Of a stretch of DNA of 10,598 nt, positions 1-10,598 are shown in pieces (within the stretch, counting starts at the first letter, position 1; every line of letters starts with the position of its first letter). The notes beneath the pieces were generated by a model, which searched no databases, was not told where the DNA came from, and was given only the letters and a program-made list of their open reading frames with translations. The position numbers and the translations under genes are program-made. The stretch comes from an uncultured Anaerolineales bacterium (GTDB lineage Bacteria > Chloroflexota > Anaerolineae > Anaerolineales > CAYZNA01), in contig CAYZNA010000013.1 of the NCBI GenBank assembly GCA_964478665.1, positions 5,923 to 16,520 of the forward strand, given 5' to 3'.

Positions 1-807
1 GAATACGCCGAGAATTACCTGAAAAATCCGCACGACTATTGGAAATACATGGGGTTGTTCAGCGGCTACATCGAAAGCATCGTCAATGCCGGCAAGCCGG
101 TGATCGCCCGGCTGAACGGGATGGCGGTCGGCGGCGGGAACGAGTCGCAACTGGCCTGCGATCTGTCCATCATCGCCGAGCATGCCTATATCAAGCAGGT
201 GGGCACCAGCGTGGGCAGCGTGGCCGCCGGAGGTTCCACCCAGTGGCTGCCACTTTTCGTGGGAGACCGGCGGGCGCGCTACATCCTGATGACCAACCGC
301 CCCATCCTGCCCTACCAGGCGCTGGAATGGGGACTGGTCAACCAGGTTGCGCCCTCGGTAACAAAAGACGGCGAGTTCATCACCCACGCCACGCCGGAGC
401 AGATCAAGAAAGCGCAAAAGGGCGATGAAGGCTACGCCATCAGCCTGGCGAAGCTGGACGAGGCCGTGCAGGCCCTGGCCGGCGAACTGATTGACAAGTT
501 CCCGGAGTGTATGCGCTACACCAAGCAGCAGGTTAACTTTTTCAAGGACCTCGCCTGGCACAGCACCATCGGCCACGCCCGCGACTGGCTTTCGATCCAC
601 TTCGCCACGTGGGAGCCGCTGGAGGGCATGAGCGCCTTCGTGGAGAAGCGGCGGGCCAACCCCACCCGCCTGCGCGAGCTGGCCGCTGCCGGCAAGTCAT
701 CGGAGTTTCCGTGGGGGCCGTACAGCCAGGAGTGCCCGAGTTGCGGTGCGAAGAGCCTGCCCGGTGAGTTCCAGTTCTGCGGCCAGTGCGGAGCAAAGTT
801 GGGATGA
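1..807 (+). CDS. Crotonase-fold (enoyl-CoA hydratase/isomerase superfamily) C-C bond hydrolase, MenB/BadI/Oah(BamA)-like. 5'-truncated at the window edge. Carries a C-terminal zinc-ribbon extension.
   Basis: Frame 1 is open from nt 1 (EYAENYLKNPHDYWKYMGLF...), so the ATG at 49 is internal. The crotonase oxyanion-hole motif is present (ARLNGMAVGGGNESQLACDLSIIAE). The segment MSAFVEKRRANP matches the canonical C-terminal end of MenB-type enzymes (cf. ...EGRNAFNQKRQPDF in MenB, from memory). The GLVNQV motif resembles the MenB GLVNTV. About 45 further residues follow, ending ECPSCGAKSLPGEFQFCGQCGAKLG. Stop is TGA at 805-807. GC3 is high. Confidence 0.85.
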   Translation, partial: EYAENYLKNPHDYWKYMGLFSGYIESIVNAGKPVIARLNGMAVGGGNESQLACDLSIIAEHAYIKQVGTSVGSVAAGGSTQWLPLFVGDRRARYILMTNRPILPYQALEWGLVNQVAPSVTKDGEFITHATPEQIKKAQKGDEGYAISLAKLDEAVQALAGELIDKFPECMRYTKQQVNFFKDLAWHSTIGHARDWLSIHFATWEPLEGMSAFVEKRRANPTRLRELAAAGKSSEFPWGPYSQECPSCGAKSLPGEFQFCGQCGAKLG

Positions 808-873
808 TTCGTGGGGTGCGAGGCGCGCGCTTTTGCGGCGCACGCCTCGCACCCCACGCCAGAGGAGGAAACA

Positions 874-2040
874 ATGAGCGTGGAAACATTCCCCGAATGG
901 CGCGACCAGCCGCTGGATGAGATGCTCTACCAGGTGCGGGAAATGCTGGAAGACACCACCTTCCCCACCGTGCAGCGCTGGCGAGCGGCCGGCGGCAAGG
1001 TGGTCGGGCACTTCCAGGTTTACTTCCCGGAAGAGATCGTGCATGCGGCCGGCCTGTTGCCCTTCAAAGTGCGTGGTGCGCAGGTTGAAGCCATGCGGGC
1101 CGACTCGCGCTTCGGCTCGTACCTGTGCTCCATTCTCAAAACCTCGCTGGAGTTGGCGCTGAGCGACCGGGTAAAGATGGAGATGTTTGTCACCCACCCG
1201 ATCTGCGACGCCGCCCGCAATCTGGGCGCGGTGTGGGGCCGCAACTTCCCCTATCCCTGCCAGATCCTGTACCTGCCGCAAAACGCCAATTCCAGCCACG
1301 CCGTCACCTACCTGCGCGGCGAATATGACCGGCTGCGGCGGGGCGTGGAAACCATCGTCGGGCGGCCGGTCTCCGATGATGACCTGCGTTCTTCGTTGGG
1401 GGTGTACAACCAGAACCGGGCGCTGCTGCGCGAGCTGTACGACATCAAACGCGCCGAGCCGTGGCTGGTCACGGCCGATGAAGCCTACGTGCTGACCGCC
1501 ATCGGCGGCGTGCTCCCACGCGAGGAGCACAACCAGCTGCTGCAGGCGGCGCTGCCCGGGTTGCGCGCCCGCGACACCAGGCCGCAGGACAAGGTGCGGG
1601 TGGTGTTCGAGGGCGGCTTCTGCGAGCAGCCGCCGCTGGACCTGATCCGCGCGGTGGGGCGCTCGTGCTACGTGGTGGACGACGACCTGATGATCGGCCT
1701 GCGCTGGATTCTGGAGGACGTGGCGCTGGACGGCGACCCGCTCCACAACCTGGCCCACGCCTATCTGGAACAATCCAGCTATAGCCCGGTGCAGCACGAC
1801 CTGCGCAAGCCCAAGGAGAAGATGCTGCTCGAGCGCATCGAGTCGTCCGGGGCGCAGGCGGCCATCATCACCGCGGCCAAGTTGTGCGAGCCGGGGCTGG
1901 AAGAGCAGGTGGCCTACACGCGCGCGCTGGACGAAGAGGGCGTGCCCTACTTCGTCAGCGAGTTCGAGGAGAACATGACCAGCTTCGACCACCTCGAGAT
2001 CCAGTTGGAGACGTTTGTGGAGAACATCTTGTTTGTCTAG
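874..2040 (+). CDS. Class I benzoyl-CoA reductase / 2-hydroxyacyl-CoA dehydratase family, HgdAB-like Fe-S subunit. The smaller of the two; BcrC/BzdN/BadD-like by size and order.
   Basis: ATG at 874 is preceded by AGGAGG (863-868) with a 5-nt spacer. The ORF-track start at 811 is a GTG upstream of the Shine-Dalgarno site. The 388-aa product has conserved Cys-containing segments (HPICDAARNLG, YPCQILY, FEGGFCEQPP, RSCYVVDDD, AAKLCEPG) typical of HGD-D/BcrB-BcrC family subunits. It sits immediately upstream of a paralogous subunit and two activase-type ATPases. Confidence 0.85.
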   Translation: MSVETFPEWRDQPLDEMLYQVREMLEDTTFPTVQRWRAAGGKVVGHFQVYFPEEIVHAAGLLPFKVRGAQVEAMRADSRFGSYLCSILKTSLELALSDRVKMEMFVTHPICDAARNLGAVWGRNFPYPCQILYLPQNANSSHAVTYLRGEYDRLRRGVETIVGRPVSDDDLRSSLGVYNQNRALLRELYDIKRAEPWLVTADEAYVLTAIGGVLPREEHNQLLQAALPGLRARDTRPQDKVRVVFEGGFCEQPPLDLIRAVGRSCYVVDDDLMIGLRWILEDVALDGDPLHNLAHAYLEQSSYSPVQHDLRKPKEKMLLERIESSGAQAAIITAAKLCEPGLEEQVAYTRALDEEGVPYFVSEFEENMTSFDHLEIQLETFVENILFV

Positions 2041-2103
2041 GGAACCGGGCTATCCCCCGCTGGCCAGCAAACGTCGGCGAGGGATAAGGAAAGGGAGCGT
2101 ACA

Positions 2104-3402
2104 ATGACACAAACACAACTTACCGACGGGATCGTTGGGCGCGGCAACCGCGACGGGGCGCAACTGTTCCGCGACTGGTTCAGCGAGTTGACCCGGGTGG
2201 CGGAAGCCGGCGGCCAGGCGGCCTATGTTTTCGTGATGGGCAGCATGAACGAGGTGCTGAAGACCTTTGATATGCCGGTGGTCTTCCCCGAGATCAACTC
2301 GCTGCAAACCGCCGTTCGCCGCGTGGCCCACGAATACTTGAACGAGGCTGAGGACTACGGCTACTCCCCCGACATCTGCGGCTACGTGAAGGCAGATGTG
2401 GCCGTGCAGCTCCGCCAGGGCAAGCACCCGATGGGCCGCATCCCGAAGCCCAGCCTGGCCGTGCTGACCAACGCCTGCAATACCTACATCAAGTGGGCGG
2501 AGATCTGGGAGCGGATGTACCACATCCCCATCTTTACCCTGGACGTGCCCGGCACCCGCATGGCCGGCGGTCAGACCTGGGCCGGCAACGCGGACTTTGA
2601 GAACGACCGCGCCTACGTGGCCGCACAGCTCAAGGAATTGATCGGGGTGTGCGAGCAGGTCACCGGCAAGAAGTTTGACATTGATAAGTTGCGCGAAGTG
2701 CTGGGGCACGCCAACACCATGAGCCGGGGCTGGAAGCGCGCGCTGGATCTGAACCAGAGCCGGCCCTCGCTATTCAACGCCCTGACCGATGGCACAATTT
2801 ACCTGGGCGTAGCCAACGGCTTCCGCGGCACGCCGGCGGGCGCCAGGTACTTCGACGAACTTGTACAAGAGATGGAATACAAGGCGGCCCACGCCATCGG
2901 CACGCTGACCGACGAAAAGTACCGCCTGATCTTTGTGGGCGTGCCCTGCTACCCCATTTTTCGGCGCTTCAACGAACTGTTCACCGAATGGGGCGGCACG
3001 TTCGTCAACTCCACTTACCTCTGGTTCGCCGCTGGCGGCACCAACCTCGGTTTTGAATACGACGTGAATCGCCCCATGGGTAGTCTGGCGAAGGGCGTGC
3101 TGAGCAGTGTGCGCGATGCAATGGACAGCATGTTTTACCAGGACAGCATCCTGACGAAAATGGTGGACGATTACCACGTGTACGGGGTGGTATATCACCC
3201 GATCAAGAGCTGCCGCACGGTCTCAACCGGCCTGGCCGACAACCGGCGCGCCCTGATGGCCGCCCGCGACGTTCCCAGCCTGTTCATCGAGTCCGACATG
3301 ATGGATCGGCGGGTGGTCTCCGAGGCACAGCTCAAGAACCGGGCGGACGCGTTCTTTGAGGGGTTAGCCACGCGCAAGATGCTGGAGAAGCGCGGGGCGT
3401 GA
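2104..3402 (+). CDS. Class I benzoyl-CoA reductase / 2-hydroxyacyl-CoA dehydratase family, HgdAB-like subunit. The larger of the two; BcrB/BzdO/BadE-like by size and order.
   Basis: ATG at 2104 is preceded by aaGGAaaGGGAGcg. The 432-aa product has Cys-containing segments (DICGYVKAD, TNACNTYIKW, GVPCYPIF, IKSCRTVSTG) and overall resembles the HgdA/BcrB-type component. It follows the previous gene after a 63-nt gap and precedes the two ATPase genes. Confidence 0.85.
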   Translation: MTQTQLTDGIVGRGNRDGAQLFRDWFSELTRVAEAGGQAAYVFVMGSMNEVLKTFDMPVVFPEINSLQTAVRRVAHEYLNEAEDYGYSPDICGYVKADVAVQLRQGKHPMGRIPKPSLAVLTNACNTYIKWAEIWERMYHIPIFTLDVPGTRMAGGQTWAGNADFENDRAYVAAQLKELIGVCEQVTGKKFDIDKLREVLGHANTMSRGWKRALDLNQSRPSLFNALTDGTIYLGVANGFRGTPAGARYFDELVQEMEYKAAHAIGTLTDEKYRLIFVGVPCYPIFRRFNELFTEWGGTFVNSTYLWFAAGGTNLGFEYDVNRPMGSLAKGVLSSVRDAMDSMFYQDSILTKMVDDYHVYGVVYHPIKSCRTVSTGLADNRRALMAARDVPSLFIESDMMDRRVVSEAQLKNRADAFFEGLATRKMLEKRGA

Positions 3403-3461
3403 GGTGAGCGGGTCGCGCATCGCAGGGCCAGTCACGTGTTGTTTGACAAAGGAGGGATACC

Positions 3462-4277
3462 ATGGCATACGCAGCCGGAGTAGACGTAGGGTCCACCCAG
3501 ACCAAAGCGATTATCATCAACGAAAAGCAGCACATCGTGGGCCGGTCGCTGACCGACACCGGCGCCAACGTGGTCGCCGCTGCCCAAAAGGCCTACGAGC
3601 TGGCGCTGGCCGACGCCGGCCTGGAGGAGCGAGAGGTGGAATACGTGGTCGGCACCGGCTATGGCCGCTACCGCGTCACCTTTGGCAACACCCAGGTCAC
3701 CGAGATCAGTTGCCACGGGCGGGGGTCGGTACACATGTTCCCCGATACGCGCACGGTGGTGGACATGGGCGGGCAAGATACCAAAGCGATTCGGGTGAAC
3801 GCCCGCGGCGAAATCCTGGATGTCTGCATGAATGACAAGTGCGCCGCCGGGACCGGCCGCTTCCTGGGGGCGGCCTCGGACGCGCTGGACATCCCGCTCG
3901 GGGAGCTGGGAGCGGTGGCCCTGCGGGCCGAGCGCCCGGTGAGGATCAGCACCACCTGCACGGTGTTCGCCGAGTCGGAGGTGCTCTCCTGGCTGGGCAA
4001 GGGCAAGAAAATCGAAGACATCTTGCAGGGCGTGCACCAGTCCATCGCGCAGCGCTCTATCGGCCTGTTGCGCCGGGTGGGGATCGAGTCCCAGGTTACG
4101 TTTACCGGCGGCGTCGCCAGAAACATCGGCATGATCGCCGCGCTGAATCACGGCATGGGGTTGCAGGTGAACGTCAGCGAGGAATCGCACTATATGGGCG
4201 CGTTGGGGGCCGCCCTGTTTGCCCTCGATCACATCCTGGCCCGTCGCAGCCCGGCCGGCGCGCCTGCAGCAGCCTGA
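3462..4277 (+). CDS. BadF/BadG/BcrA/BcrD-family ATPase (HgdC-like electron-activating ATPase subunit), copy 1
   Basis: ATG at 3462 is preceded by AGGAGGG (3450-3456). The N-terminal ASKHA phosphate-1 motif is [11 protein letters not shown]. Two conserved Cys sit in [13 protein letters not shown] and [12 protein letters not shown], the positions that ligate the inter-subunit [4Fe-4S] cluster in HgdC-type ATPases. Length is 271 aa. Confidence 0.9.
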
Positions 4278-4319
4278 CCGTGCGGCGCCATCACCCCAGG
4301 CGGAGAGGGAAACACTACG

Positions 4320-5162
4320 ATGTATACCACGGGAATTGACGTTGGATCAACCTACACCAAAGCGCTCGTCTTGAGTGAGGACAATCAAATCGTTGGCCGG
4401 GCGATCTCCAGCACCGGCTTCAAGCTGGCGGAGGTCGCCCGGCGGGTGTACGAGCAGGCGCTGGCGCAGGCTGGGTTAGATGCCAGCGACGTGGGCTATG
4501 TGGTCTCGACCGGCTTTGGCCGGCACATGGTCCCCTTCAGCGACGTGTCCGTGACCGACCTGACCGCCAGCGCGCGCGGCGCAGCCTTCCTCTTTCCCGA
4601 GACGCGCACCATTCTGGACGTGGGCGGGCAGACCATGAAGGCCAGCCGGCTGGATGGCCGGGCAAAGGTAAAATCGTTCCGGCTCAACGACAAGTGCGCC
4701 GCCGGCACCGGGGCTTTTCTGGAGAAGACCGCGCGCTATATGGGCTATTCGACCGAGGAGATCGGCCCGCTGGTAGCCACCTCCAAAGAAGTGGTGCCCA
4801 TCTCGGGCGTGTGCGCCGTGTTCGCCGAGTCGGAAGTGATCAACCACCTCTCGATGGGCAGCTCCCCCGCCGACATCATGCACGGGGCCATTGCCTCGCT
4901 GGTGGACCGCTCGGTGCAACTGATGAGGCGCGTGCAAATGGAGCCGGAGTTCACCCTGATCGGCGGCATTTTGCGCTTTGAGACCATGGCCCGCGTGGTG
5001 AGGCAGAACCTGAAGACCGAGGTAAACGTGCCGCAGGGCGACATGGTGCAGTTCACCTCCGCCCTGGGCGCAGCGATCCTGGGCCACCAGCGCCTGCGCA
5101 GGCTGGCCCCGTCGGGGGAGGGCAGCAAGACCGAAGGCGAGATGGCGGCGGTTGAGGCCTGA
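4320..5162 (+). CDS. BadF/BadG/BcrA/BcrD-family ATPase (HgdC-like), copy 2, a distinct paralog of copy 1
   Basis: ATG at 4320 is preceded by GGAGAGGGA (4302-4310). It has [24 protein letters not shown] and SGVCAVFAESEV, the same motif set as the upstream ATPase but clearly diverged. Length is 280 aa. Two different small ATPases in tandem fit the alpha/delta heterodimer of Bzd/Bad-type reductases. Confidence 0.9.
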   Translation: MYTTGIDVGSTYTKALVLSEDNQIVGRAISSTGFKLAEVARRVYEQALAQAGLDASDVGYVVSTGFGRHMVPFSDVSVTDLTASARGAAFLFPETRTILDVGGQTMKASRLDGRAKVKSFRLNDKCAAGTGAFLEKTARYMGYSTEEIGPLVATSKEVVPISGVCAVFAESEVINHLSMGSSPADIMHGAIASLVDRSVQLMRRVQMEPEFTLIGGILRFETMARVVRQNLKTEVNVPQGDMVQFTSALGAAILGHQRLRRLAPSGEGSKTEGEMAAVEA

Positions 5163-5176
5163 GCCGGATCGGGGAG

Positions 5177-5210
5177 CGCGCCGGGGCCACAAAGCAAGAA
5201 GAACCCGGCG
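5177..5210 (+). other. Intergenic imperfect hairpin downstream of the second ATPase gene
   Basis: GCGCCGGG (5177-5184) and CCCGGCGC (5203-5210) form an 8-bp stem around an 18-nt A-rich loop. It starts 15 nt after the stop at 5162 and is followed by a C10 tract, not a T-tract. Confidence 0.3.
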
Positions 5211-5220
5211 CCCCCCCCCC
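5211..5220. repeat. Homopolymeric C10 tract (G10 on the minus strand) in an intergenic region
   Basis: cccccccccc at 5211-5220, directly read. It lies 20 nt upstream of the ATG of the small ORF at 5241. Confidence 0.9.
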
Positions 5221-5240
5221 ACGATCCCCGGCGAGGAATA

Positions 5241-5543
5241 ATGACTGAAAGTGACGCCCGCCCAACTCCCGCTCTCGATTGGCTGGAAGCCTCCGCCCGC
5301 CGCGTGCTGACGGAGGACCAGCTTGCTCCCGATCCGGCCTTGCTGGCCGAGGGCTGGGAGCGCCGCTTTGTGGCCGACGCCCGGCGGGCGAAGGAAGCCA
5401 TTGAGCTGTACCAGCAACTGGGCTTTGAGGTACGGGCCGAGCCGCTGCGCCCTACCGATCTGGGCGACGATTGCGAAGACTGCAAGCTGGTCGTGGTCTT
5501 TCAGTTCCAGACCATCTATACCCGCCGGAAGCGCGAAGCGTGA
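5241..5543 (+). CDS. Small hypothetical protein (100 aa), no recognisable domain
   Basis: ATG at 5241 with GAGGA three nt upstream, which is a short spacer. Third-position GC is strongly biased as in neighbouring genes and there are no internal stops. It sits between the reductase and VOC genes on the same strand. The sequence (…EAIELYQQLGFEVRAEPLRP…DDCEDCKLVVVFQFQ…) is not recognised. Confidence 0.5.
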   Translation: MTESDARPTPALDWLEASARRVLTEDQLAPDPALLAEGWERRFVADARRAKEAIELYQQLGFEVRAEPLRPTDLGDDCEDCKLVVVFQFQTIYTRRKREA

Positions 5544-5570
5544 GCACCGGACCACACAGGAACAGAATCT

Positions 5571-6026
5571 ATGGACTACATTCGCCGCATCCAGCGCGTC
5601 GCCCTCGCGGTAGAGGACCTTGACCAGGCGCAGGCTTTCTTTGAGAACTGGTTCGGGGCGCAGTTCCTGCCGGAGGAAAACATCAGCGATATGGGCATTC
5701 GCTACCGGCCGTTTAACGTGGGCGAGAGCATGATGGAACTGTTGCAGGCCACCCGCGAGGATAGCCCGGTAGCGCGATTCCTGCGGCAACGCGGCGGGCC
5801 GGGGGTGCACCACATCACCTTTGAGGTAGAAGACCTGGACGCCGCCATCGCCGAACTGGAGCGGCGCGGCGGGCGCATCGCATACCGTCATACTTACGCC
5901 CCCGGCGTCACGTTCGAGGGCAAGTACTGGCGGGAAGCCTTCATTCACCCGAGGGACGCCTTTGGCGTGCTGATCCACCTGGCGGAGACCAGGCCGGTAG
6001 ACCCCCGGCCGGACCCCAATCACTGA
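5571..6026 (+). CDS. VOC (glyoxalase/bleomycin-resistance/dioxygenase) superfamily protein, methylmalonyl-CoA-epimerase-like
   Basis: ATG at 5571 with AGGAA nine nt upstream. The 151-aa product has RVALAVEDLDQAQAFF near the N-terminus and GVHHITFEVEDLDAAIAELERRGG in the second half, the paired beta-alpha-beta-beta-beta module signature typical of methylmalonyl-CoA epimerase/glyoxalase-I-like proteins. Confidence 0.75.
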   Translation: MDYIRRIQRVALAVEDLDQAQAFFENWFGAQFLPEENISDMGIRYRPFNVGESMMELLQATREDSPVARFLRQRGGPGVHHITFEVEDLDAAIAELERRGGRIAYRHTYAPGVTFEGKYWREAFIHPRDAFGVLIHLAETRPVDPRPDPNH

Positions 6027-6052
6027 CCACTTGCCCCCGCGAGGCCAATCCT

Positions 6053-6601
6053 ATGAACACTACCGATCCCGTTGCCTTCTTGCTGTCCGAGCACCGCCGC
6101 ATCATGGCAGCGGTAGATGCAGTCCGGCGCGCCCTGCCCGATCTGCGCTCCCCGGAAGATTTCCGGCGCCACCTGCCGGCTTTGTTGGCCTTCGGCGATG
6201 CGCTGACCTACGACATTCCGGCCCACGCTGGCAAGGAAGACGACATCTTCTTCCCGCCCATCGAGGCCATCATTGGCCGTGAGGGCGGGCCGACCGGCGT
6301 GATGCGCGCAGAGCACAAAGAAATCCACGCCGCCGCGCTCAAGCTGAGTGAAGTGATCCGCGAGTTGAACACGGTGGAACACCCGGCCATCCTGGCCGGC
6401 ACGCAGGCCTACGAGGCGCAGATCCGGGCGGTGCAGGCCGGCGCGGGAGACCTGGCGGCCTTCGTGGCCCACACCCACGAACTGATAGACCTGCTGGACC
6501 GCCACTTTGGCAAGGAAGAGCAGGTGCTGTTTCCCATGTACAACCAACTGGTGGAACCATCGGTTCGCGCGGAGGTGGCCCGGCGCATGGCCGGGCGATA
6601 G
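6053..6601 (+). CDS. Hemerythrin (HHE cation-binding) domain protein
   Basis: It starts with LLSEHRRIMAAVDAV and has two HHE-type motifs: HAGKEDDIFFPPIE and HFGKEEQVLFPMY (H-x2-KEE-x2-LFP). Length is 182 aa. TAG stop at 6599-6601 is followed immediately by a GC hairpin. Confidence 0.75.
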   Translation: MNTTDPVAFLLSEHRRIMAAVDAVRRALPDLRSPEDFRRHLPALLAFGDALTYDIPAHAGKEDDIFFPPIEAIIGREGGPTGVMRAEHKEIHAAALKLSEVIRELNTVEHPAILAGTQAYEAQIRAVQAGAGDLAAFVAHTHELIDLLDRHFGKEEQVLFPMYNQLVEPSVRAEVARRMAGR

Positions 6602-6603
6602 CC

Positions 6604-6623
6604 GGGGAGGGAACGCCCTCCCC
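6604..6623. terminator. Putative bidirectional stem-loop in the 29-nt gap between convergent genes
   Basis: GGGGAGGG (6604-6611), loop AACG, CCCTCCCC (6616-6623): a perfect 8-bp G/C stem. It lies exactly between the hemerythrin stop (6601) and the stop of the minus-strand membrane-protein gene (6631). No U-tract, so this is not a canonical intrinsic terminator. Confidence 0.45.
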
Positions 6624-6630
6624 CCGCCGC

Positions 6631-7644
6631 TTACGTCTTCTTCTCCTCTTTCAAGGACAGCACGCGCGCCCAGCGATCCAGGGCAATGGCATAGGTCTTG
6701 TTGATGGGCAGGTGCGTGGCGCGCATCTCGTCCAGCAGATCCAGCTTCTTGTTGCCCACCGTCACCATGGCGCGCAGGTCCAGCCCGCCGTCGGCGCGGC
6801 GCGCCATGCTCAGCCAGGTCACTTTTGCCTCGCCGCCGTTCAGCAGTGCGTGCTTTGCCTCCTGCTTGCACAGGTCGTAAAACTGCGTCTGGCGGGTGAA
6901 GATGTAGGGCGGCGCGTGGTCATCTGCTGCGACGAAGTAAAAGCGAAGCCCCTGGCGCGCCGCGGCCTGCGCGGCGAGGACGTACCCCATCCAGTAGGCC
7001 ACGCCCAGGTAGACCTCCAGCACTTCTCTCATCCCGATCTCGACGACCGGCGCCGTGAATGGCAGGCCTAGCTGGGACGCCAGCTCGCGCAGCAGGCTCG
7101 GATAGCCCACCAGCGCCAGCGGGGCCAGCAGCCCGGCCACCACGCTGAAACTGATCGGGCTCCACGCGCGGCCGATCGCGCGCATTAGCCCGATGAGCGC
7201 GCGCGGCACGTCAGGCCCGTCCAGCCCGCGCGCAATGGCGCGCACGGCTTGCTGCACGCGTCGCGTCGCGCGCGCGCTCCACTCGTCAAACGCCGCCAGG
7301 AAGGCGAATATCAGCCCCAGGAAGGCAATCGCCAACCCGCCGCTTATCCCCCAGACCCCATCGGCCCGGACGAAGAACAGCAACCCCACGAACCAGCCGA
7401 GCAGCAGGGTCAGCGCGCCCGGCAGCAACCCGCGCAACTCGCCCATCAGCACCTCCGGGGTCAGCCGGTTCAGCACGCCCCTGTGCCACTCCTGCCACTG
7501 CCGGTTCTGCGAGTGACAGCGCACGCAGACGGTCTCGTTCTCCGGCAGCGGTTCGCGGCAGGCAATGCAGGCCACGCTGCGCGGCACGACCGGCGGCGTC
7601 TCAGGGGCAGCGGCCCCGGCGGTCTCAGCGGGCATCGTGGACAT
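6631..7644 (-). CDS. Polytopic membrane protein with N-terminal zinc ribbon (CxxC-x11-CxxC) and a ~100-aa C-terminal soluble domain. Function unknown.
   Basis: ATG at 7644 (MSTMPAET…) is preceded on the minus strand by GAGGAG with a 6-nt spacer. The ORF-track start at 7797 would overlap the upstream gene by about 170 nt. Zinc ribbon is CIACREPLPENETVCVRCHS. At least four hydrophobic helices follow (LLPGALTLLLGWFVGLLFFV, GISGGLAIAFLGLIFAFLAAF, VVAGLLAPLALVGY, VYLGVAYWMGYVLAA). The hydrophilic C-terminus ends KEEKKT. Confidence 0.65.
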   Translation of the reverse strand: MSTMPAETAGAAAPETPPVVPRSVACIACREPLPENETVCVRCHSQNRQWQEWHRGVLNRLTPEVLMGELRGLLPGALTLLLGWFVGLLFFVRADGVWGISGGLAIAFLGLIFAFLAAFDEWSARATRRVQQAVRAIARGLDGPDVPRALIGLMRAIGRAWSPISFSVVAGLLAPLALVGYPSLLRELASQLGLPFTAPVVEIGMREVLEVYLGVAYWMGYVLAAQAAARQGLRFYFVAADDHAPPYIFTRQTQFYDLCKQEAKHALLNGGEAKVTWLSMARRADGGLDLRAMVTVGNKKLDLLDEMRATHLPINKTYAIALDRWARVLSLKEEKKT

Positions 7645-8353
7645 CGGCAGGCTCCTCAACTCTAGTCCTGAAAAGTCGCAGCGCGTCGCCCGCGGCAGGC
7701 GCGTTGCCCGATCCGGGGGCCGGGGCCGCTGGCCGGGCGCCGGTTGCCAGTCCGGGCGCGGGAGCGCCTGTCGCGCCCGGCGCCCCGTGCTGGCCATCGG
7801 CCCAGTCGCGCAGCAGGGCGAGGCGACGCCACAGCCGGCTCAGGGTCGGGCTTCCGTCCAGATTGTGCAACAAGTCCAGCCCGGAGGTGCACACTCGAGA
7901 GACGCACAGCCAGTGGCTGGTCTGAGCGTAAGCAACCGCCAGCCCGCACAGGCTGGCGGCCTGCAGCGGGTCAGCGTGGAAAGAAGCGCGAAAGCTGCTG
8001 GCGCTCCGCTCGTAGGCGCGCACGGCCAGGTCTGACTTCTGCTCCACGCAATGGCAACCTCCGGCATACCCGTGGAGCATGCCCTGCACAACGGTCGGCA
8101 CCAGATGATCCACGCGGTTGCTGCGGACCGTCTCCATCGCCTGCAGCCCGTGCGTCACCCGAACAAGCGCGCCGGCCCAATCGCGCCGATTCCAATCCGT
8201 GCGGGTCTGCTCGACGTAGCGCACGAGCGCCGGCTCACCCTGCAACGCCCGCCGCACTTGCTCGCTGCAGTCCCACAGCAGCAGTTGGAGCGTGTCCACG
8301 ACCTCCACAGCGATGTCCGAGAGCACGAGCGGTTCACGCAGATCAGCAAGCAT
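7625..8353 (-). CDS. Hypothetical, predicted alpha-helical soluble protein with a Pro/Ala/Gly-rich low-complexity C-terminal tail
   Basis: ATG at 8353 (MLADLREPLVL…) is preceded on the minus strand by GGAGGA with an 8-nt spacer. The longer ORF-track start at 8473 would overlap the upstream gene's 3' end. The tail reads GAPGATGAPAPGLATGARPAAPAPGSGNAPAAG. It overlaps the downstream gene start by 20 nt (7625-7644). No recognisable domain. Confidence 0.55.
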   Translation of the reverse strand: MLADLREPLVLSDIAVEVVDTLQLLLWDCSEQVRRALQGEPALVRYVEQTRTDWNRRDWAGALVRVTHGLQAMETVRSNRVDHLVPTVVQGMLHGYAGGCHCVEQKSDLAVRAYERSASSFRASFHADPLQAASLCGLAVAYAQTSHWLCVSRVCTSGLDLLHNLDGSPTLSRLWRRLALLRDWADGQHGAPGATGAPAPGLATGARPAAPAPGSGNAPAAGDALRLFRTRVEEPADVHDAR

Positions 8354-8408
8354 GTCAGGTATCCTCCATAGATTCAGAGCGCCGTCAACCGAGCCTGGCT
8401 TTCCGGCC

Positions 8409-10598
8409 TCATGTCGTCTGCCCGGCGCCGGCGTCCTCGCCGGCCGGCGGCGGTTCGGCCGCCATCTCCCCACGCGCAGGCGCAGCGGGGAGGATCTGCT
8501 CTCTGGCGAGGAAGGCCGCCAGGGCCTCGATCTTTGAAAGGTCGCTGAAAGCGGCCAGGCGCACGAGCATCTCCATCAGCCCCTTGTCCTCAAGGATCTG
8601 CGGATCCGCCTGGCCCAGCACCGCAAGCAACTGCCGCAGGTACTCCACGCGCGCCAGCGCCTCGCCGCGGCCGGTGATAGCCTTCGCTTCGGCCTTGCCA
8701 CGCGCACGATCCACGTCCGCGTGAGCCATCAATTGGGCCAGTTCGGCCTGCATCCCCGCGCGGATGCGCTCTGCCTCCATTTCGGCCTCCACCTCCGCAC
8801 CTCTTGCTTGTTTGAGCAAGCCGGCGACATCGCGGGCAGCTTCGAGCTCGCGCTTGCGGTCGGCCAGTCTGACCGCTTCCTTCGCCGACTCTTTCCAGGC
8901 GTCGGTCCTGGCGTGTTCCACTTCCGCCCAGCGGCGCCATTGAATATCCCAGATTTGCAGCAGCCGCTCACTCACATCGCGGGGCATGCGCAGTTCGTCG
9001 AGCGTGACGCGCACTACCTCCACCCCCCAGCGCTGCGCCAGCCGGTCCAGCCGGCGTTGAAGTTCGAACTGCAGCGGTGCGCGCGGGGAAAGCTGCCCGT
9101 CCATCACCGTGCTGCGCGGGTCGAAGATCAGCTCCAGATAGCGGGCGGAGATCGCCTCGCGCAGGGCGGCGCGGGCCGCCTGCTCGGTCTGCTGGCGCCA
9201 GTCGGCCGCGTTCAACGCGGCCCGGCGCAGCACGTCATCCTCCAATACGTAGCGGCCCTCGGTTACCAGTGCGGCCTCGTCCTGCATGATGCGGTATTGG
9301 ATGGAGAACTTCACCTTCAGCGGCACGCCCTCGCGGGAGTAGACCGTTTCCTCGCTCTGGTCAATGGCCTGCGTTTGCAGGCGCAGATCGAACACTGCCC
9401 GCAGCGCCTCACCGAACTGGGTGACCACCATGCCCGGCCCGGATACCCGCGAGACTTGCCCAAAGCGCTCGAACACGCCGGCGCTGGCTCCGGTAAGCAG
9501 CACCAGCCCCGGTCCCGGCAGGCGCAGCGGCCCGCTGCCCTGCAAGGCGCCGTCCACCACCTGCTGAAAGGCGCTAAACCACGGGTTGCGTGGCCACACT
9601 GCGGCCATCATGGCGCCAAACAGGCGGCGCCGGCCCTCCGCCCGATCCACCGCGTGCCAGTCGGCCAGCACGCCGGCGGCCAGCCACCACGCGGCCAGGG
9701 CGGAGCCGGCCAGCGCGGTCAGCGCCAGCAGCGCCGCCAGCACAGCGCGGCGGGTGCGCGCGGGGCGCGCCGTTTGCGGGAGCGGAATCGCGCCCACTTC
9801 CGCCACGTAGGCCCCCTCCTTCGTGGCCACCAGCAGGCGGCCGCGCGCCGCGTCCACAATCAGCAGCCTGCCATCCAGGCCCAGCGCCAGAGAAGTGGGG
9901 GTAAACGGCCCGCGCAGATCGCTGATCTGACGCAGATACCTGCCGTCGGCGCCGAACACTGCCACCCGGCGGTGTCCGCTGTCGGCCACAAAGGCCGTCC
10001 CCTGCCAGTCCACCGCCACATCCGTGGGATACGATAGCTGGGCCTCCGGCGGGGCATCTTTGAGCGGCAGCGTGGTGGTGAGGGTGCGCGTGACCGGCTC
10101 GAACACCCAGATGACATTGCTGAGTGGGTCAGCCAGATGGAGTTGGCCGCTTTCGGGGTAAATGCCCAGCCCGCCGGGGGAAACGAAGACGTGGGGGGTG
10201 TCGTCGCCCCTGTCACCCAGGCCGGTCACAGCCCCATCGGGCTTGATGATCTGCACCCGCCGGTTCTCGGCGTCGGCGACGTAAAGGTTGCCTTGCCTGT
10301 CTTCCAGCGCGTCAGTGGGTGAGCGGAACTGCTTCAGGGCGGCGCCAACCTCACCCAGCGGCTCAATTGTGGCGCCGTCGTCGAACAGACGAAACAGGCG
10401 GTGCTGTCCCGGGTCGGTGACAATCAGGTGCTCGTGTGCCTGCCAGTCGTCGCCGTCGCGCTTCGGGGCAAGGAACAGGCCGTCCGGCTGCACCAGCTCA
10501 CCCCGCATCCACTCGTTCACTGGTTGCAGTGTCCTGTCGAGCACCACTACCCGATGCGCCAGCAGGTCCCCCACGTACACCTTCTCATCGGAGGCGGC
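8409..10598 (-). CDS. Fusion protein: NHL-repeat beta-propeller + single TM helix + SPFH/band-7 (flotillin/stomatin/prohibitin-like) domain with E/A-rich coiled coil. 5' end outside the window.
   Basis: The frame stays open beyond 10598 (…AASDEK VYVGDLLAHR), so the gene is 5'-partial. NHL blades: GNLYVADAENRRVQIIKPDG, TAFVADSGHRRVAVFGADGRYL, LLIVDAARGRLLVATKEG, LHLADPLSNVIWVF. TM is RRAVLAALLALTALAGSALAAWWLAAGVLA (about 9665-9752). SPFH core is VFERFGQVSRVSGPGMVV…LKVKFSIQYRI. A flotillin-like E/A/R-rich coiled coil follows (RKRELEAARDVAGLLKQARGAEVEAEMEAERIRAGMQAELAQL). Stop TGA (revcomp) at 8409-8411. Confidence 0.85.
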   Translation of the reverse strand, partial: AASDEKVYVGDLLAHRVVVLDRTLQPVNEWMRGELVQPDGLFLAPKRDGDDWQAHEHLIVTDPGQHRLFRLFDDGATIEPLGEVGAALKQFRSPTDALEDRQGNLYVADAENRRVQIIKPDGAVTGLGDRGDDTPHVFVSPGGLGIYPESGQLHLADPLSNVIWVFEPVTRTLTTTLPLKDAPPEAQLSYPTDVAVDWQGTAFVADSGHRRVAVFGADGRYLRQISDLRGPFTPTSLALGLDGRLLIVDAARGRLLVATKEGAYVAEVGAIPLPQTARPARTRRAVLAALLALTALAGSALAAWWLAAGVLADWHAVDRAEGRRRLFGAMMAAVWPRNPWFSAFQQVVDGALQGSGPLRLPGPGLVLLTGASAGVFERFGQVSRVSGPGMVVTQFGEALRAVFDLRLQTQAIDQSEETVYSREGVPLKVKFSIQYRIMQDEAALVTEGRYVLEDDVLRRAALNAADWRQQTEQAARAALREAISARYLELIFDPRSTVMDGQLSPRAPLQFELQRRLDRLAQRWGVEVVRVTLDELRMPRDVSERLLQIWDIQWRRWAEVEHARTDAWKESAKEAVRLADRKRELEAARDVAGLLKQARGAEVEAEMEAERIRAGMQAELAQLMAHADVDRARGKAEAKAITGRGEALARVEYLRQLLAVLGQADPQILEDKGLMEMLVRLAAFSDLSKIEALAAFLAREQILPAAPARGEMAAEPPPAGEDAGAGQTT

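Follow-up and report, generated by a model that had tools for sequence, protein, structure and literature searches.

The minus strand of a 10,598-nt stretch of DNA from an uncultured Anaerolineales bacterium (the whole stretch analysed, hereafter the window) carries three consecutive genes, designated g1, g2 and g3, which encode an NHL-SPFH fusion protein, a soluble helical protein and a polytopic membrane protein with a zinc ribbon. The locus raises the question of whether g3 is an NfeD-like partner of the SPFH protein, as the first-pass annotation had considered possible, or a partner of another kind, and whether the three genes form a functional system at all. We approach it from what the sequences show: which domains the three proteins contain, in what order the genes lie and how far this order is conserved, what class of fold the C-terminal domain of g3 has, and that NfeD features are lacking. 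On balance, the locus is probably an SPFH scaffold operon with non-NfeD partners that is restricted to the Anaerolineales/Chloroflexota lineage. The genes and their junctions are arranged as follows, in window coordinates.

8409..10598, minus strand: g1, 5'-truncated where the window ends, TGA stop at 8409-8411
8354..8408, minus strand: g1-g2 spacer of 55 nt, containing the Shine-Dalgarno sequence GGAGGA at 8362-8367
7625..8353, minus strand: g2, ATG at 8353, TGA stop at 7625-7627, 242 amino acids (aa)
7625-7798, minus strand: Pro/Ala/Gly (PAPG) tail of g2, lineage-specific
7652..7657, minus strand: Shine-Dalgarno sequence GAGGAG of g3, within the g2 coding tail
7625-7644, minus strand: overlap of g2 and g3, 20 nt, in different reading frames
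6631..7644, minus strand: g3, ATG at 7644, TAA stop at 6631-6633, 337 aa

As first annotated, three open reading frames (ORFs) lie on the same strand, the first two 55 nt apart and the last two overlapping by 20 nt, with strong Shine-Dalgarno sites ahead of g2 and g3; the sequence bears this out, the spacing to the start codon being 8 nt for GGAGGA of g2 and 7 nt for GAGGAG of g3. The product of g2 is identical to NCBI protein HY784_03935. A sister assembly (L001; contig JACQYH010000142, GCA_016208285.1) differs from the window by 4 mismatches over the aligned bases and a 53-bp indel. The 53 bp at window positions 6472-6524, inside the hemerythrin gene that converges on g3, are missing near position 7672 of L001, which could reflect an assembly error or a strain variant. 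This deletion frameshifts the hemerythrin gene and yields a 321-aa call antisense over g3, and g3 itself is uncalled in L001 probably because the extended hemerythrin ORF covers it.

The GC content of the window is 61-74%, and the window contains many long spurious ORFs; the status of g2 and g3 as genes was therefore assessed from their codon composition and their homologues. The GC content at third codon positions (GC3) is 0.79 in g2 and 0.89 in g3, that at second positions (GC2) being the lowest, whereas the ORFs on the opposite strand have a GC3 of 0.61-0.76; the codon-position GC of g2 and g3 matches that of the bona fide genes of the window. A word-indexed search of 5.8 billion proteins matched g2 and g3 only to themselves. 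The full HMMER scan of 1.84 billion representatives with a concatenated g2+g3 query gave 13 hits, among them nine relatives of g3 (about 9 representative clusters, E 1e-26 to 2e-4, 20-50% identity) and two relatives of g2, P0084 (E 5e-11) and P0086 (E 9e-5). Taken together, the distant homologues and the GC3 pattern set g2 and g3 apart from ORFs that arise by chance in GC-rich DNA; the two families, as judged from their sequences, are real and small, and they evolve fast. On neither protein does a Pfam, NCBIfam, PADLOC or PHROGs model reach its cut-off. PADLOC produced zero matches for g1, g2 and g3 at E<=1; PHROGs produced none for g2 and g3, and for g1 a weak and uninformative one (phrog_200, E 3e-4); NCBIfam produced none for g3 and a single subthreshold match for g2 (TIGR04509, 14.4 bits, cut-off 34). 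A longer form of g3 starting from the ATG at 7797 (388 aa) was rejected, since it has no Shine-Dalgarno sequence, overlaps g2 by 173 nt and fits the N-termini of the homologues poorly; GC3 in the stretch 7645-7797 (0.84 in the g3 frame versus 0.72 in the g2 frame) does not cleanly separate the two starts.

Homologues of the module genes co-occur in several other loci, and their recurring order bears out the earlier suggestion of a conserved SPFH-centred module that is neither an HflKC nor a YqiK/YqiJ pair. The loci with informative gene order are the following.

L007, an 8.8-kb metagenome contig found by a narrower g3 alignment: NHL-SPFH gene (41% identity), then a g2 homologue (28%), then a g3 homologue (29%)
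L002, a short contig closely related to L007: order g1-g2-g3, with an ATGA-type g2/g3 overlap
L013: a g2 homologue, then the N-terminal half of a g3 homologue
L004 and L005: a gene for a Band_7 protein, then a g3 homologue after 53 nt; no g2 and no NHL domain
P0004 contig (JGI 3300075153): NHL-SPFH gene, the g2-family gene P0084 after 43 nt, then a gene for a 950-aa CHAT-domain protein; no g3

A C-terminal half matching the partial g3 homologue of L013 is found on L015, a contig of the same sample. The Band_7 protein of L004/L005 (591 aa, four transmembrane (TM) helices) is 31% identical over 462 aa to the SPFH part of g1. Two further g3 loci, L008 and L011, were retrieved from metagenome-assembled genomes of Anaerolineales by a degenerate DNA pattern run on genome contigs, the other three pattern matches being false; both are cut at contig ends and show no upstream context. 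Wherever a gene is visible upstream of a g3 homologue, it encodes either a g2-family or an SPFH protein. Common to all loci is only the SPFH protein, and g2 accompanies its NHL-bearing form. Flanking genes are unrelated between the loci, and the recurrence of the same order among unrelated flanks supports the module, also under the co-occurrence criterion set in the first-pass annotation. A search of GTDB genomes and JGI metagenomes with the g1 SPFH alignment revealed no related loci.

Several features of these contigs deserve mention in their own right. The P0004 locus adjoins the heat-shock cluster hrcA-grpE-dnaK-dnaJ-prmA. About 85 nt upstream of the SPFH gene, L004 (7751-8086) and L005 (465-800) share a conserved 111-aa ORF of no family and without similarity to g2, which could be another accessory component. 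On L004, a gene for a PfkB kinase and an indigoidine-synthase-A-like gene (11084-13046) begin 3 nt after the g3 homologue on the same strand; they resemble pseudouridine kinase and glycosidase genes and, though tightly spaced, probably constitute an unrelated downstream operon. Assemblies repeatedly break within the module: the NHL start of L001 is interrupted by an N-gap (3544-3598), and contig ends fall inside the g3 homologues of four loci (L008, L011, L013 and L015). Such breaks may reflect strain heterogeneity or repeats in the module genes.

The first gene of the module was confirmed as an NHL-SPFH fusion (Pfam NHL, E 4e-12; Band_7, E 1.6e-16). Its product consists, in this order, of an NHL/SGL-type propeller, a TM helix, the SPFH/Band_7 domain, an E/A/R-rich coiled-coil-like region and a proline-rich tail, of which two elements were placed as follows.

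9666..9749, minus strand: g1 TM helix between NHL and SPFH, aa 284-311, from hydropathy
8976..9500, minus strand: g1 SPFH (Band_7) domain, aa 367-541; PF01145, 61.3 bits against a cut-off of 23.6

The propeller is matched by PF01436 in 2 stretches (45.9 bits, cut-off 20) and by SGL (28.1 bits, cut-off 26.3), and the NHL match of the L007 homologue reaches 85.6 bits in 3 stretches. The best PDB chains for the g1 SPFH profile (A5) are those of stomatin, at a weak E of about 4e-4, and hhalign aligns the domain with E. coli QmcA over 157 columns (E 6e-5). The E/A/R-rich region (about aa 545-660) is kept in P0004, L007 and L004, and its composition suggests that the part of g1 C-terminal to SPFH may form a coiled coil. 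The fragment encoded in the window comprises 729 aa, its frame being open to base 10598 with no start codon within the window. In L001 the run of 55 N begins exactly at the position where the window ends, and two N-terminal TM helices are encoded upstream of it; about 56 N-terminal residues of g1, including these two helices, thus lie beyond the window, and, as judged against the L007 homologue, the N-gap conceals only about 3 residues. Full-length homologues of g1 are P0004 (844 aa, 39% identity) and the L007 protein (4266-7100, 41%). The combination of NHL and Band_7 was observed in only 2 of 76 database hits, namely the g1 protein itself and P0004.

The g2 protein is soluble and helical, with a conserved core of about 185 aa (7799-8353) that is TPR-like in its second half. 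It had been described at first as unrecognisable; g2 belongs to a small family with homologues (P0084, P0086, L002 381-971 and L007 about 7183-7761) that is TPR-like below threshold. TPR_12 scores 17.4 bits on g2, below the cut-off of 30.1, and about 30 of the top matches of the family profile (A4) in PDB, nearly all of them, are TPR proteins, with the best E only 0.01, falling at profile positions of about 114-181. The PAPG tail is missing from all g2 homologues and is specific to the genome of the window. The homologues end about where the g3-frame ATG at 7797 lies, and the tail seems to have arisen recently by read-through after an ancestral stop was lost.

In line with the first-pass annotation, g3 combines an N-terminal Cys4 ribbon, four hydrophobic helices and a C-terminal domain of roughly 100 aa.

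7516..7569, minus strand: g3 zinc ribbon, C26-x2-C29...C40-x2-C43, followed by a conserved N-x2-W-x2-W motif
6955..7431, minus strand: g3 TM helices 1-4, about aa 72-92, 100-120, 160-182 and 207-230, from hydropathy and model helices
6634..6945, minus strand: g3 C-terminal domain, aa 234-337, alpha+beta

The N-terminus is a putative zinc ribbon with two CxxC knuckles: C26, C29, C40 and C43 are kept in all full-length g3 homologues and in L013 (alignment A2), and the Pfam models DZR and DZR_2 give subthreshold matches in 4 of 10 family members. At codon 43 (window position 7517) the coding strand of L001 reads A where the window has G, which changes TGT to TAT and C43 to Tyr; population variation, an error in sequencing or inactivation of the allele could each account for this. 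The loop between TM2 and TM3 is Arg-rich, and in some homologues a Pro/Thr-rich insert separates TM3 from TM4. Invariant residues of the C-terminal domain are Y236, P245, F249, W277, R282, G287, P313, D323 and W325. The frequency of the top residue is 0.50-0.57 in the two soluble parts of g3 (zinc ribbon and C-terminal domain) versus 0.42-0.45 in the TM helices; this somewhat higher conservation tips the balance modestly towards docking or anchoring and away from transport. A function of g3 as a ZAS-type anti-sigma factor was rejected, given the CxxC...CxxC pattern instead of HxxxCxxC, the four TM helices and the lack of an adjacent sigma-factor gene.

The structure of g3 was modelled by AlphaFold on the 10-sequence family alignment, the single-sequence model (predicted local distance difference test, pLDDT, 47.7) being unusable. 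The alignment-based model has a mean pLDDT of 69.9, with values of 78-88 in the C-terminal domain, which is modelled as a single helix (252-268) with four long antiparallel strands after it. Foldseek searches with the g3 model gave only weak NTF2/SnoaL-like matches; the full-length model found nothing significant in PDB and BFVD, since its helical part dilutes the domain signal, and a profile of the C-terminal domain returned only noise from PDB sequences. We assign the domain, with medium confidence and on the basis of this model, to a cystatin/NTF2-like alpha+beta fold rather than an OB barrel.

A scan of 6400-10598 found no promoter-like or terminator-like site inside the module. Upstream of g1 in L001, at 3077-3207, a strong intrinsic terminator with an 18-bp stem and a T-run follows an Rrf2-cupin gene pair, and a promoter-like site with an extended -10 element (TTTGCA-17-TACAAT) lies between it and g1, none being obtained from shuffled sequence. 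The g2 and g3 homologues in L002 and L007 overlap by 4 nt in the ATGA manner. From these signals, together with the Shine-Dalgarno sites and the 20-nt overlap of the window, a g1-g2-g3 operon is plausible. The RNA structure of the g1-g2 spacer is nothing special (z = -0.25). Two features lie at the downstream end of the module.

6594..6628, minus strand: GC-rich hairpin GGGGAGGG-CGUU-CCCUCCCC, in the 29-nt spacer between g3 and the hemerythrin gene
6053-6601: hemerythrin gene, converging on g3 and ending at 6601

The hairpin has a folding energy of -23.1 kcal/mol, no better than that of shuffled sequences (z = -0.15), and was not picked up by the terminator scan; it may be a terminator, one that lacks a U-run, but the evidence is weak.

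Systems that pair an SPFH scaffold with partners from the same operon are already known. The SPFH-NfeD operons (qmcA-ybbJ and yqiK-yqiJ of E. coli, PH1511-PH1510 of P. horikoshii and floT-yuaF of B. subtilis) resemble our locus in that a stomatin-like SPFH gene adjoins, and is probably co-translated with, a gene for a polytopic protein with a soluble C-terminal domain. As in qmcA-ybbJ, the SPFH gene comes first and the partner second, and the SPFH domain of g1 is nearest to stomatin and QmcA. In contrast to these operons, g3 has an N-terminal zinc ribbon and a predicted cystatin/NTF2-like domain instead of an OB barrel, a TPR-like gene stands in between, and the SPFH protein carries an NHL propeller. 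In B. subtilis, the SPFH protein YdjI and the operon-encoded non-NfeD membrane proteins YdjG/YdjH regulate each other, the two partners controlling what YdjI does at the membrane (PMC8581546; bioRxiv 10.64898/2026.02.06.704340). Like pspA-ydjGHI (samGHI), the locus combines an SPFH protein with two operon-encoded non-NfeD partners, and the N-terminus of YdjG, as read from a primer sequence only, begins with CxxC in the manner of the g3 zinc ribbon. Unlike YdjI, which is soluble, of the Band_7_1 type and recruited by its partners, g1 is membrane-anchored and of the Band_7 type; furthermore, there is no PspA gene here, and g2 is a soluble TPR-like protein rather than a membrane protein. With HflK/HflC-FtsH the proposed system would have in common that a membrane client is enclosed and regulated by a scaffold of the SPFH/coiled-coil type. 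The HflK model matches g1 weakly (E 3e-4, 20 bits against a cut-off of 159), and the differences are the single SPFH gene, the lack of FtsH nearby and an SPFH domain predicted to be cytoplasmic rather than periplasmic. The g2 and g3 partner families and the NHL fusion are undescribed in the libraries and literature searched.

From the domain content and the gene linkage we infer the topology, physical interactions, oligomerisation and physiological role of the system as follows. The positive-inside rule applied across homologues places the loop between the N-terminal helices of g1 in the cytoplasm, the propeller outside and the SPFH domain after TM3 inside; for g3, the four TM helices and the basic TM2-TM3 loop predict that the zinc ribbon and the C-terminal domain are both cytoplasmic. 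With its three TM helices as the anchor, g1 would expose a propeller of the six-bladed type on the outer side of the cell, with its SPFH/coiled-coil part facing the cytoplasm, and it may oligomerise, like other SPFH proteins, into a membrane-attached assembly. The g3 protein would be a dedicated membrane partner or client of g1 that docks via its conserved soluble domains, occupying with a different fold the positional role of NfeD in stomatin and flotillin operons or that of YdjG/YdjH. A small cytoplasmic TPR-like adaptor, g2, would serve the NHL-bearing scaffolds by engaging the protein encoded downstream, i.e., g3 or, in the relative, the CHAT protein. The role of the whole would probably be to organise or restrain g3 upon an envelope cue sensed by the NHL domain.

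Several points weigh against this scaffold interpretation. Physical contacts among g1, g2 and g3 are putative; the topology derives only from hydropathy and the positive-inside rule, and the flank preceding TM3 in the window (RPARTRR) fits it imperfectly; the g3 model, with its moderate mean pLDDT on ten sequences, is only of medium confidence. The family is tiny, as seen from the 13 hits among 1.84 billion representatives, and, with L002 and L007 being close relatives and several contigs short, the loci correspond to only about 4-5 independent lineages. A three-part complex is not obligatory, g2 being missing from the SPFH-g3 loci and g3 from the P0004 locus. Finally, the CHAT protein in the position of g3 could point to the logic of a conflict system.

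The last point belongs to an alternative that we regard as unlikely but worth stating in full, namely that the locus is a sensor-adaptor-effector system of conflict or programmed death in filamentous Chloroflexi. Here, the extracellular NHL propeller would sense a cue from the envelope or from phage, an effector would be released or activated by the SPFH assembly, and the TPR-like g2 would relay the signal, the swappable effector being either g3 as a membrane-perturbing zinc-ribbon protein or a CHAT caspase-like protease. Effector swapping is typical of defence systems, and TPR modules are often found with CHAT proteases. The locus of the only other NHL-SPFH homologue in the databases has its 950-aa CHAT protein third after g1-g2, and the patchy, rare distribution and fast sequence divergence of the module would suit such a function. 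Conflict systems are present in multicellular bacteria, Chloroflexi included (Kaur et al., 2020; PMC7159879). With the TPR/CHAT systems described there the locus shares the CHAT gene after g1-g2 in a relative, the occurrence in filamentous Chloroflexi and a modular third gene; it differs from them in that neither an NTPase core (STAND, MoxR or GTPase) nor effector-associated domains were detected, and in that the window has no CHAT gene and no PADLOC match on any of the three proteins. The CHAT association, moreover, comes from one locus. No defence genes occur in any flank, where the neighbours are metabolic or housekeeping genes, and neither plasmids nor phages gave a match. Conservation in the TM helices of g3 does not exceed that in its soluble domains, the helices show no recognisable pore or holin signature, and SPFH-g3 pairs occur without g2 or NHL.

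A reading of g3 as a divergent partner of the NfeD type, with a small SPFH-binding OB barrel as its C-terminal domain, is very improbable. The positional argument for it is that g3 lies downstream of an SPFH gene, like ybbJ after qmcA in E. coli, and places TM helices before a small soluble C-terminal domain in an operon with that gene; NfeD2 sequences, in addition, are very divergent (PMC2636767). TM helices, a soluble domain and an SPFH operon are, however, necessary and not sufficient for NfeD membership. PF01957 gave no match at E<=10 to g3 or to its C-terminal domain alone, and none at E<=1 to the 10 family members, and hhalign of the g3 family profiles against E. coli NfeD YbbJ gave probabilities of 0.1-0.3%. 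The C-terminal domains of NfeD proteins are five-stranded OB barrels (PMC4208085), whereas the structure prediction of the g3 domain, proposed at the outset as a check, gives a helix and four strands and no OB barrel. Since PF01957 does not match, similarity to YbbJ is negligible and the fold is alpha+beta in a medium-confidence model, we conclude that g3 is not an NfeD member, and the possible NfeD-like assignment of the first-pass annotation is disfavoured.

Mere adjacency, in which g2 and/or g3 would be spurious or unrelated ORFs and no functional module would exist, is the least credible alternative and, judged from the sequence data, effectively refuted: the self-hits of the word-indexed search, the uncalled g3 of L001 and the long ORFs generated by high GC would agree with it, but HMMER homologues (E to 1e-26 for g3 and 5e-11 for g2), a GC3 of 0.79-0.89, gene adjacency kept across lineages and a miscall in L001 explained by the 53-bp deletion do not.

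Positions 49-6026 of the window (plus strand) are occupied by a cluster of the benzoyl-CoA-reductase / 2-hydroxyacyl-CoA-dehydratase type.

49-807, plus strand: short enoyl-CoA hydratase fragment-like protein with a C-terminal double zinc ribbon
811-2040 and 2104-3402, plus strand: HGD-D subunits
3462-4277 and 4320-5162, plus strand: BcrAD_BadFG ATPases
5241-5543, plus strand: 100-aa ORF of no family
5571-6026, plus strand: VOC/glyoxalase

SPFH proteins (stomatin, flotillin, prohibitin and HflK/C) are universal membrane organisers, whose action appears to be largely dependent on partners or clients. The partner types that are understood are few (NfeD, FtsH and YdjG/H), and earlier surveys left several SPFH subfamilies without an operon partner (PMC2636767). 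The present locus defines two partner families, a membrane protein with a zinc ribbon, four TM helices and a cystatin-like domain and a TPR-like adaptor, and shows a very rare SPFH scaffold fused to an NHL propeller that is probably extracellular. The family is tiny and confined to uncultured bacteria of the Anaerolineales type, and its function is a proposed one. The related locus with the CHAT gene hints that SPFH scaffolds may be linked to cell death or to regulated proteolysis. Should its parts interact in the manner proposed, the module would offer a compact system for studying how an SPFH assembly couples a signal from outside the cell to a membrane client.

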